6,313 bases of DNA from a virus (Duplodnaviria; Heunggongvirae; Uroviricota; Caudoviricetes): the IMG/VR virus record IMGVR_UViG_2597490224_000003. One strand, written 5' to 3'. The position numbers and the translations under genes were made by a program. The stretch's first letter is position 1; every line of letters starts with the position of its first letter. The notes below the pieces were generated by a model, which saw nothing but the letters and a program-made list of their open reading frames with translations, made no database searches and was not told the DNA's origin. This document shows, one piece after another, positions 2,782 to 6,239 of this stretch.

Positions 2782-3204
2782 ATGTTCCTGAAAACCGAAT
2801 CATTTGAACATAACGGCGTGACCGTCACGCTTTCTGAACTGTCAGCCCTGCAGCGTATTGAGCATCTCGCCCTGATGAAACAGCAGGCAGAACAGGCGGA
2901 GTCAGACAGCAACCGGCAGGTTACTGTGGAAGACGCCATCAGAACCGGTGCTTTTGTGGTGGCGATGTCCCTGTGGCATAACCATCCGCAGAAGACAAAG
3001 CAGCCTTCCATGAATGAAGCCGTTAAACAGATTGAGCAGGAAGTGCTTACCACCTGGCCCGCGGAGGCAATTTCTCATGCTGAAAACGTGGTGTACCGGC
3101 TGTCCGGTATGTATGGGTTTGTGGTGAATGATGCCCCTGACCAGGCAGAGGACTCCGGGCCTGCAGAGCCTGTTTCTGCGGGAAAGTGTTCGACGGTGAG
3201 CTGA
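2782..3204 (+). CDS. G: Tail assembly chaperone gpG (140 aa, zero-frame product)
   Basis: ATG at 2782 preceded by GGAGAG; product MFLKTESFEHNGVTVTLSELSALQRIEHLALMKQQAEQAESD... matches lambda gpG; slippery heptamer near the 3' end; stop TGA 3202-3204. Confidence 0.9.
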   Translation: MFLKTESFEHNGVTVTLSELSALQRIEHLALMKQQAEQAESDSNRQVTVEDAIRTGAFVVAMSLWHNHPQKTKQPSMNEAVKQIEQEVLTTWPAEAISHAENVVYRLSGMYGFVVNDAPDQAEDSGPAEPVSAGKCSTVS

Positions 3205-3620
3205 GTTTTGCCCTGAAACTGGCGCGAGAGATGGGGCGACCTGACTGGCGCGCCATGCTTGCCGGGATGTCATCCACGGAGTATGCCGACTGGCACCGCT
3301 TTTACAGTACCCATTATTTTCATGATGTTCTGCTGGATATGCACTTTTCCGGGCTGACGTACACTGTGCTCAGCCTGTTTTTCAGCGATCCGGATATGCA
3401 TCCGCTGGATTTCAGTTTGCTGAACCGGCGTGAGGATGACGAAGAGCCTGAAGATGATGTGCTGATGCAGAAAGCGGCAGGGCTTACCGGAGGCGTCCGC
3501 TTTGGCCCGGACGGGAATGAAGTTATCCCCGCTTCCCCGGATATGGCGGGCATGACGGAGGATGACGTAATGCTGATGACAGTATCAGAAGGGATCGCAG
3601 GAGGAGTCCGGTATGGCTGA
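2782..3620 (+). CDS. T: Tail assembly chaperone gpG-T fusion made by -1 programmed ribosomal frameshift at 3180-3186, continuing in the -1 frame to TGA 3618-3620
   Basis: The -1 frame downstream of the slippery site is open to 3620 (ORF-track 3186..3620, ...SFALKLAREMGRPDWRAMLAGMSSTEYADWHRFY...). The G/G-T arrangement is the established lambda paradigm. The exact junction codon is approximate. Confidence 0.85.
3180..3186 (+). promoter_or_regulatory. -1 programmed ribosomal frameshift slippery heptamer G GGA AAG
   Basis: GGGAAAG read directly; in the G frame the codons are GCG|GGA|AAG (3178-3186), matching the X XXY YYZ pattern. Same heptamer as the lambda G/T site. Confidence 0.85.
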
Positions 3621-6239
3621 ACCGGTAGGCGATCTGGTCGTTGATTTAAGTCTGGATGCGGCCAGATTTGACGAGCAGATGGCCAGAGTCAGGCGTCATT
3701 TTTCCGGAACGGAAAGTGATGCGAAAAAAACAGCGGCAGTCGTTNNNNNNNNNNCAGGCGTCATTTTTCCGGTACGGAAAGTGATGCGAAAAAAACAGCG
3801 GCAGTCGTTGAACAGTCGCTGAGCCGACAGGCGCTGGCTGCACAGAAAGCGGGGATTTCCGTCGGGCAGTATAAAGCCGCCATGCGTATGCTGCCTGCAC
3901 AGTTCACCGACGTGGCCACGCAGCTTGCAGGCGGGCAAAGCCCGTGGCTGATCCTGCTGCAACAGGGTGGTCAGGTTAAGGACTCCTTCGGCGGGATGAT
4001 CCCCATGTTCCGGGGGCTTGCCGGTGCGATCACCCTGCCGATGGTCGGGGCCACCTCGCTGGCGGTGGCGACCGGTGCGCTGGCGTATGCCTGGTATCAG
4101 GGTAACTCAACCCTGTCCGATTTCAACAAAACGCTGGTCCTTTCCGGCAATCAGTCGGGTCTGACGGCAGATCGTATGCTGGTCCTGTCCAGAGCCGGGC
4201 AGGCGGCAGGGCTGACGTTTAACCAGACCAGCGAGTCACTCAGCGCACTGGTTAAGGCGGGAGTAAGCGGTGAGGCTCAGATTGCATCCATCAGCCAGAG
4301 TGTGGCGCGTTTCTCCTCTGCATCCGGCGTGGAGGTGGACAAGGTCGCTGAAGCCTTCGGGAAGCTGACCACTGACCCGACGTCGGGGCTGACGGCGATG
4401 GCGCGCCAGTTCCATAACGTAACGGCGGAGCAGATTGCGTATGTTGCTCAGTTGCAGCGTTCCGGCGATGAATCCGGGGCATTGCAGGCGGCGAACGAGG
4501 CCGCAACGAAAGGGTTTGATGACCAGACCCGACGCCTGAAAGAGAACATGGGCACGCTGGAAACCTGGGCAGACAGGACAGCACGGGCATTCAAATCCAT
4601 GTGGGATGCGGTGCTGGATATTGGTCGTCCTGATACCGCTCAGGAGATGCTGATTAAGGCAGAGGCTGCGTTTAAGAAAGCGGACGACATCTGGAATCTG
4701 CGCAAGGATGATTATTTTGTTAACGATGAAGCGCGGGCGCGTTACTGGGATGATCGTGAAAAGGCCCGTCTTGCGCTTGAAGCCGCCCGAAAGAAGGCTG
4801 AACAGCAGAGTCAACAGGACAAAAATGCGCAGCAGCAGAGCGATACCGAAGCATCACGGCTGAAATATACCGAAGAGGCGCAGAAGGCTTACGAACGGCT
4901 GCAGACACCGCTGGAGAAATATACCGCCCGTCAGGAAGAACTGAACAAGGCACTGAAAGACGGGAAAATCCTGCAGGCAGATTACAACACGCTGATGGCG
5001 GCGGCGAAAAAGGATTATGAAGCGACGCTGAAAAAGCCGAAACAGTCCGGCGTGAAGGTGTCTGCGGGCGATCGTCAGGAAGACAGTGCTCATGCTGCCC
5101 TGCTGACGCTTCAGGCTGAACTCCGGACGCTGGAGAAGCATGCCGGAGCAAATGAGAAAATCAGCCAGCAGCGCCGGGATTTGTGGAAGGCGGAGAGTCA
5201 GTTCGCGGTACTGGAGGAGGCGGCGCAACGTCGCCAGCTGTCTGCACAGGAGAAATCCCTGCTGGCGCATAAAGATGAGACGCTGGAGTACAAACGCCAG
5301 CTGGCTGCACTTGGCGACAAGGTTACGTATCAGGAGCGCCTGAACGCGCTGGCGCAGCAGGCGGATAAATTCGCACAGCAGCAACGGGCAAAACGGGCCG
5401 CTATTGATGCGAAAAGCCGGGGGCTGACTGACCGGCAGGCAGAACGGGAAGCCACGGAACAGCGCCTGAAGGAACAGTATGGCGATAATCCTCTGGCGCT
5501 GAATAACGTCATGTCAGAGCAGAAAAAGACCAGGGCGGCTGAAGACCTGCTTCGCGGGAACTGGATGGCAGGCCTGAAGTCCGGCTGGAGTGAGTGGGAA
5601 GAGAGTGCCACGGACAGTATGTCGCAGGTTAAAAGTGCTGCCACGCAGACCTTTGATGGTATTGCGCAGAATATGGCGGCGATGCTGACCGGCAGTGAAC
5701 AGAACTGGCGCAGCTTCACCCGTTCCGTGCTGTCCATGATGACAGAAATTCTGCTTAAGCAGGCAATGGTGGGGATTGTCGGGAGTATCGGCAGCGCTAT
5801 TGGCGGGGCTGTTGGTGGCGGCGCATCCGCGTCAGGCGGTACAGCCATTCAGGCCGCTGCGGCGAAACTCCATTTTGCAACCGGAGGATTTACGGGAACC
5901 GGCGGCAAATATGAGCCAGCGGGGATTGTTCACCGTGGTGAATTTGTCTTCACGAAGGAGGCAACCAGCCGGATTGGCGTGGGAAATCTCTACCGGCTGA
6001 TGCGCGGCTATGCCACCGGCGGTTATGTCGGTGGCACCGGAAGTCCGGCGCAAATGCGGCGTTCAGAGGGTATCAGGTTTGAGCAGAACAACAACGTGGT
6101 GATTCAGAACGACGGTACGAATGGTCTGCCAGGTCCACAGATGATGAAGGCGGTGTATGACATGGCCCGCAAGGGTGCCCGTGATGAAATCCAGGCACAG
6201 ATGCGCGATGGTGGTCTGTTCTCCGGAGGTGGACGATGA
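3613..6239 (+). CDS. H: Tail tape measure protein gpH; reading frame artificially broken by an N-run plus duplicated flank (3745-3809); intact length would be 853 aa
   Basis: ATG at 3613 overlaps the T stop (ATGGCTGA). N-terminal MAEPVGDLVVDLSLDAARFDEQMARVRRHFSGTESDAKKTAAVV matches lambda gpH. After the gap the same protein continues in another frame (RRHFSGTESDAKKTAAVVEQSLSRQALAAQKAGISVGQYKAAMRMLPAQFTDVATQ...) through the 785-aa ORF to TGA 6237-6239. Removing the 65 nt at 3745-3809 gives 2562 nt = 853 codons plus stop, the lambda H length. Coiled-coil-like A/Q/E/K/R-rich middle and Gly-rich hydrophobic C-terminal segment are typical of tape measure proteins. Confidence 0.9.
3690..3809 (+). 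repeat. 55-nt direct duplication flanking the N-gap (copy 1 3690-3744, copy 2 3755-3809; 54/55 identical); most likely unmerged overlapping contig ends
   Basis: Copy 1 CAGGCGTCATTTTTCCGGAACGGAAAGTGATGCGAAAAAAACAGCGGCAGTCGTT versus copy 2 CAGGCGTCATTTTTCCGGTACGGAAAGTGATGCGAAAAAAACAGCGGCAGTCGTT; single difference A (3708) versus T (3773). Both copies encode the same peptide RRHFSGTESDAKKTAAVV. Confidence 0.85.
3745..3754. other. Assembly gap (10 N) inside the tape measure gene
   Basis: Ten consecutive N characters read directly in the sequence. Confidence 0.98.

Follow-up and report, generated by a model that had tools for sequence, protein, structure and literature searches.

Gene content of the window

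The window, as we call the whole stretch of DNA that was analyzed, is 6,313 nucleotides (nt) long and belongs to a draft assembly. The region from 49 to 690 opens with the 3′-terminal part of the major capsid gene (open reading frame [ORF] ending at 264), followed at about 316 to 690 by a phage-21-type FI-like packaging gene that differs from lambda FI. These head-proximal genes are of the phage 21 type and not of the lambda type, whereas the tail genes, beginning with FII, resemble those of lambda; this mixture is ordinary lambdoid mosaicism.

The central part of the window, where every feature whose coordinates follow is on the plus strand, carries the genes for the tail tube, the tail chaperones, and the tape measure protein. 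Gene U (PF06141 match) lies upstream of G. Gene V, for the major tail tube protein, spans positions 2026 to 2766 (coordinates mapped from the phage 21 annotation) and matches PF16461 (9.7e-71) and Big_2. Gene G, encoding a tail assembly chaperone with a zero-frame product of 140 amino acids (aa), occupies positions 2782 to 3204. A Shine-Dalgarno-like GGAGAG (2770 to 2775) is found 6 nt 5′ of the G start codon, and in phage 21 the corresponding GGAG carries a ribosome binding site annotation. The T segment (3186 to 3620), 144 codons plus a TGA in the −1 frame relative to G, is predicted to be made only as the C-terminal part of a G-T protein. Gene H, for the tape measure protein (PF06791 and PF09718), spans positions 3613 to 6239. 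The G and T ORFs therefore sit between the major tail protein and the tape measure genes, in the order V-G-T-H seen in lambda.

Both chaperone ORFs were assigned to protein families. The G ORF is a gpG equivalog (PF06894, 1.3e-57; TIGR01674, 8.7e-63, 210 bits against a cutoff of 74) and has 96% nucleotide identity to lambda G. The −1 ORF is a gpT equivalog (PF06223, 2.8e-14; TIGR01715, 7.1e-56, 187 bits against a cutoff of 77). No solved relative was found when the sequence of the G-T fusion was compared with PDB chains, and a scan of the whole window at the Rfam gathering threshold returned no RNA family.

The H gene spans a contig join and is interrupted by an assembly artefact. Ten Ns (3745 to 3754) are flanked by a 55-nt direct duplication (3690 to 3744 and 3755 to 3809), the two copies of which differ by one mismatch, A at 3708 and T at 3773, with glycine encoded in both cases. 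Judging from this arrangement, the gap looks like two contig ends that overlapped by k = 55 and were joined with Ns. Collapsing the 65 extra bases leaves 6248 bases that are collinear with phage 21 and restores an intact H ORF of 853 aa. As E. coli genomes carrying the G-T segment have a median of 2 copies, the contig break and the mismatch may reflect more than one lambdoid prophage in the same genome.

Close relatives in phages and E. coli prophages

Phage 21 (OL657228) has 99.8% identity over G-T. Once the 65 artefactual bases are removed, the whole window is 99.7% identical to and collinear with phage 21, with 18 substitutions over the 6248 bases, two of which (3505 and 3515) fall in T. 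The phage 21 record carries a joined CDS annotated as ‘GT tape measure protein chaperone frameshift product’. Lambda-like phages are collinear with the whole window at about 96 to 97% identity. Moreover, several E. coli chromosomes have a prophage G-T segment that is 100% identical to that of the window, and the segment finds matches in 3708 of the 5426 complete E. coli genomes (68%).

Lambda G-T was also found, with an identical 111 nt at the slip site, on short contigs, often of roughly 1x coverage, in assemblies labeled Neobacillus, Oceanobacillus, Kitasatospora, Chromatium, Shewanella, Leeuwenhoekiella, Pseudoxanthomonas, Psychrobacter, and others. Those occurrences most likely correspond to lambda DNA contamination or spike-in and not to real prophages.

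A slippery heptamer in phase within the G/T overlap

The heptamer GGGAAAG is located at positions 3180 to 3186 of the plus strand and is the single copy in the window, counting both strands. Because G starts at ATG 2782 and (3180 − 2782) mod 3 = 2, base 3180 is the third codon position of the G ORF and the heptamer is read as G GGA AAG. After AAG (3184 to 3186), the G frame continues with TGT TCG ACG GTG AGC and ends at TGA 3202 to 3204, so AAG lies six codons ahead of the stop. These data confirm both the coordinates and the phase proposed in the initial annotation, which had placed the heptamer 6 codons before the gpG stop.

According to a stop-codon map, the −1 frame is uninterrupted between 3141 and 3617, the nearest stops being at 3138 to 3140 upstream and TGA 3618 to 3620 downstream. 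After the slip, this frame comprises 144 codons (3186 to 3617), so the figure of about 145 codons given initially, with a stop overlapping the H start, was essentially correct. The H start, ATG 3613, lies within ATGGCTGA, and the T stop and the H start overlap by 8 nt. The heptamer is intact and no stop interrupts the −1 frame after it, and either a stop there or a mutated heptamer had been named beforehand as speaking against a frameshift. The predicted G-T fusion, 2782 to 3186 joined to 3186 to 3617, is 279 aa long.

The G and T frames are both open over 61 nt (3141 to 3201, plus strand), and a productive shift is confined to this interval for that reason. Within it, G GGA AAG is the only in-phase heptamer of the form X XXY YYZ. 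The bare sequence GGGAAAG is not rare, with 1.11 copies expected per window on both strands in dinucleotide shuffles. As significance by heptamer frequency was uninformative, it was replaced with counts restricted by phase and by overlap. Across the genes of the window, in-phase X XXY YYZ heptamers occupy 6 of 1863 codon positions, and about 0.06 would be expected in the 20-codon overlap. Among these in-phase heptamers, only the one at 3180 opens a long −1 ORF with a recognized domain. The weight of the case is carried by homology and conservation, heptamer frequency being uninformative.

Comparison with the lambda site

Next, the G-T region of the window was compared with that of lambda, to which its DNA is 96.2% identical (J02459, 9711 to 10549). 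The 64 nt around the site (3163 to 3226) are base-for-base identical to the experimentally studied lambda site, whose heptamer lies at positions 10109 to 10115 of the record. The window and lambda have in common the heptamer, its phase, its distance to the G stop, product lengths of 140 aa and 279 aa, and the ATGGCTGA overlap. Alignment of the translated −1 frame to lambda had been suggested as a check; the predicted fusion aligns with gpG-T without gaps, with 263 of 279 residues identical (94% at the aa level). The 16 aa substitutions in the fusion of the window all lie more than 12 residues away from the junction. The resemblance to lambda G/G-T noted at the outset is supported by the gpG and gpT equivalogs, the gene order, the identity of the site, and the alignment of the fusion.

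Conservation of the slip site across relatives

To describe conservation among close relatives, we used 80 IMG/VR loci with a close gpG relative, which represent 55 distinct G-T DNAs with 111 of 839 columns variable. GGGAAAG is kept in all 80 loci, and the 144-codon T frame is kept in 79 of them, the remaining locus having a T frame of only 129 codons. One IMG/VR locus (L065) lacks the DWRAM motif of T, and it may be the same locus as that with the 129-codon frame. A decayed G-T was seen in Shigella flexneri CP182557, in which GGGAAAG is kept and indels just downstream break the T frame.

A more distant set contained 39 distinct sequences around the site, taken from phage records and enterobacterial genomes (a single genome for each species), and included Enterobacter, Citrobacter, Kluyvera, Trabulsiella, Klebsiella, Pantoea, and others. 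Four forms of the heptamer were found among the 39 sequences, GGAAAAG (21), GGGAAAG (14), GGTAAAG (3), and AAAAAAG (1). A AAG is invariant (39/39) and is in every case 19 codons ahead of the DWRAM motif of T. The position of the G stop is not constant; one sense codon separates this stop from AAG in 7 of the 39 sequences, and five do so in the other 32. Since the distance from AAG to DWRAM is constant while the G stop moves, the slip site is fixed relative to T and not to the end of G.

The phages of the phi80/N15/HK225/LLS type have homologous G and T genes with the slip site in the same place, 19 codons before DWRAM, and in the records of phi80 and LLS the homologous GGAAAAG bears the annotation of a −1 slippery sequence. 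Their heptamer, read as G GAA AAG, differs from that of the window in that the P-site codon cannot re-pair perfectly. Their T is also shorter, with 113 to 115 aa, and lacks a C-terminal extension of about 35 aa. In T of the lambda/phage 21 type, this extension ends in a second copy of GG(V/I)R(Y/F)G (AAGLTGGVRFGPDG ... SEGIAGGVRYG), and T of the phi80, HK225, and Stx2-phage types ends just past the first copy. The second copy could be an internal duplication.

Candidate stimulatory elements around the slip site

Frameshift sites may be accompanied by stimulators in cis, and we looked for such elements on both sides of the heptamer. No Shine-Dalgarno-like element was found upstream, the 30 nt from 3150 to 3179 (GGACTCCGGGCCTGCAGAGCCTGTTTCTGC) having no GGAGG or AGGAG-like stretch. 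Downstream, an RNAalifold consensus yielded a candidate RNA structure (3194 to 3264, plus strand), composed of an outer stem (3194 to 3201 paired with 3257 to 3264) and an inner GC-rich hairpin (3220 to 3235 paired with 3240 to 3255). This raises an alternative in which the frameshift is the same and an RNA stem 7 nt downstream of the heptamer tunes its rate, a reading that we regard as unlikely.

The outer stem came from the consensus of 7 relatives, and 90 to 95% of cells remained paired over those 7 and then over 39 relatives (90% at n = 39), compared with 22 to 44% in slid controls. One pair covaries cleanly (A-U 19, G-C 16, C-G 1), and the 75-nt segment from 3192 to 3266 gave a z score of −2.71, this segment having been picked after seeing the fold. 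However, a segment chosen beforehand (3187 to 3290) gave an unremarkable z score of −1.05, and most of the 22 pairs do not covary, as 4 are invariant, 5 change on a single side, and in 11 the only departures are broken pairs. The second pair that varies freely (19/81) is disrupted in 15 of the 39 sequences, and the relatives from Pantoea and Klebsiella, which are the most distant, have lost the stem. Moreover, the stem lies where the most conserved part of T (ELxFxxKLAREMGRPDWRAMLAGM) is encoded, and this accounts for most of its conservation. We consider it unlikely that a conserved long-range RNA stem tunes the G-T shift of the lambda family, which reviews state to be stimulator-free. If it were true, the unusual nucleotide-level conservation of CTGGCGCG...GACTGGCGCGCCATGCT would partly reflect selection at the RNA level.

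Alternative origins of the T product

A different explanation, reflected in the annotation of many genome records, would be that T is a gene of its own whose translation begins at GTG 3186 or at an ATG further inside, without any frameshift. The last G of the heptamer together with the following TG forms this GTG, and a separate T CDS starting there is called in the ORF listing, in RefSeq lambda (10115 to 10549), and by PGAP in E. coli chromosomes. The initial annotation had stated that standard gene callers mis-annotate T as a separate, start-less ORF; the separate CDS was indeed observed, but it is not start-less, as the callers take this GTG for its start.

Independent initiation is nonetheless very improbable. 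The literature assigns gpG-T to −1 frameshifting at the heptamer (Levin et al. 1993, cited in PMC3296357 and PMC7618472). Among the relatives, only lambda-like members have GTG as the first −1 codon, and the others have GCC, GCA, GTC, GTA, or GCT there, although the −1 frame is open and, beginning at the slip site, the T-frame peptide (xFxGEL / xLxSEL) is conserved. A conserved T peptide without a conserved start is what a frameshift-dependent extension would predict, and it argues against independent initiation. In addition, the bases immediately 5′ of 3186 show no Shine-Dalgarno-like sequence, and the annotated T starts differ arbitrarily among relatives. Independent initiation of T was rejected on the ground that its start codon is missing in relatives, and the GTG start is spurious.

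To our knowledge, transcriptional slippage sites in bacteria have much longer homopolymer runs than that of the window. Production of the fusion by RNA polymerase slipping on the A run, possible in principle in one relative, a Stx2a phage whose AAAAAAG holds six A’s, has a negligible probability and was rejected, as the window has a run of only three A’s and conservation concerns the phase-specific A AAG and not run length; moreover, tRNA-Lys modification mutants alter the lambda gpG:gpGT ratio, which points to the ribosome (PMC3296357).

Proposed mechanism and role of the G-T fusion

Overall, in view of its phase, its identity to lambda, and its conservation, it is almost certain that the slippery heptamer G GGA AAG at 3180 to 3186 is the lambda G/G-T programmed −1 ribosomal frameshift site, here in a phage-21/lambda-like tail module (V-G-T-H). 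No feature of the sequence is at odds with this reading. The sequence anatomy, the homology, and the conservation of the site were established directly for the copy in the window. Shifting itself, its rate, and the chaperone roles of the products would, by analogy, be those of lambda, whose site is identical over 64 nt.

The lambda G/G-T frameshift has reportedly been described by Levin, Hendrix, and Casjens in 1993 and by Xu, Hendrix, and Duda in 2004, 2013, and 2014. According to the lambda model, most ribosomes would pass G GGA AAG and terminate at TGA 3202, giving the 140-aa gpG. A small fraction (about 4% in lambda) would slip back one base with tRNA-Gly on GGA and tRNA-Lys on AAG, and the slipped tRNAs would re-pair with GGG and AAA. 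Reading in the −1 frame would then continue from 3186 to yield the 279-aa gpG-T. In lambda, gpG-T arises by −1 frameshifting at G_GGA_AAG while about 96% of ribosomes stay in frame (PMC3296357), and this heptamer is highly shift-prone in E. coli (PMC3296357, PMC5009743, PMC7618472). When the mnm5s2U34 of tRNA-Lys is hypomodified, shifting becomes more frequent and the phage yield drops (PMC3296357, PMC7618472). In the main text of Maynard et al. 2012 (PMC3296357), the slippery sequence of lambda is printed as GGGTTTG (codons GGT-TTG and GGG-TTT), and Table 1 of that paper gives GGGAAAG; the former appears to be a typographical error, and Table 1 agrees with the sequence.

As for the function of the two products, the lambda model proposes that the G parts of gpG and gpG-T would coat the tape measure protein H and that the T part would recruit the major tail protein V. 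This is consistent with the binding of H by the G domain and of V by the T domain in lambda (PMC5009743). A low, fixed G-T:G ratio (about 1:30) would be needed for correct tail assembly. A gpG:gpG-T ratio of about 30:1 is crucial for lambda tail assembly, and both proteins are absent from virions (PMC3296357, PMC5009743, PMC7618472). The importance given from the start to a low, fixed ratio in assembly with the tape measure protein agrees with these three sources.

The practical use of these results lies in annotation, where the T frame should form the C-terminal end of a single joined G-T CDS (2782..3186,3186..3620) and not the separate GTG-initiated gene that RefSeq lambda and PGAP still record.

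Comparison with known frameshift systems

In E. coli dnaX, an upstream Shine-Dalgarno-like element and a strong downstream hairpin accompany the slippery sequence, and the shift rate is far above the few per cent of G-T. The window differs from dnaX in having no upstream Shine-Dalgarno-like element and a downstream structure that is only a candidate. The two sites share the host translation machinery and the same A-site slippage on A AAG by the single tRNA-Lys(UUU), dnaX producing gamma and tau at A AAA AAG; this comparison of A AAG slippage rests partly on PMC5009743.

The nearest known system is the lambda-type G/G-T pair (Xu et al. 2004), to which the locus belongs by its placement, its gpG, its gpT in the −1 frame, and its in-phase heptamer, and also by the conservation of the slip site and by a T that has neither a conserved start codon nor a ribosome binding site of its own. 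As had been anticipated, the feature is not novel, the site being a near-identical copy of the lambda type example. The feature is already known, real but ordinary, and it opens no new question; the copy in the window is one more instance of a very common, well-understood recoding signal that sets the tail chaperone ratio of siphoviruses.
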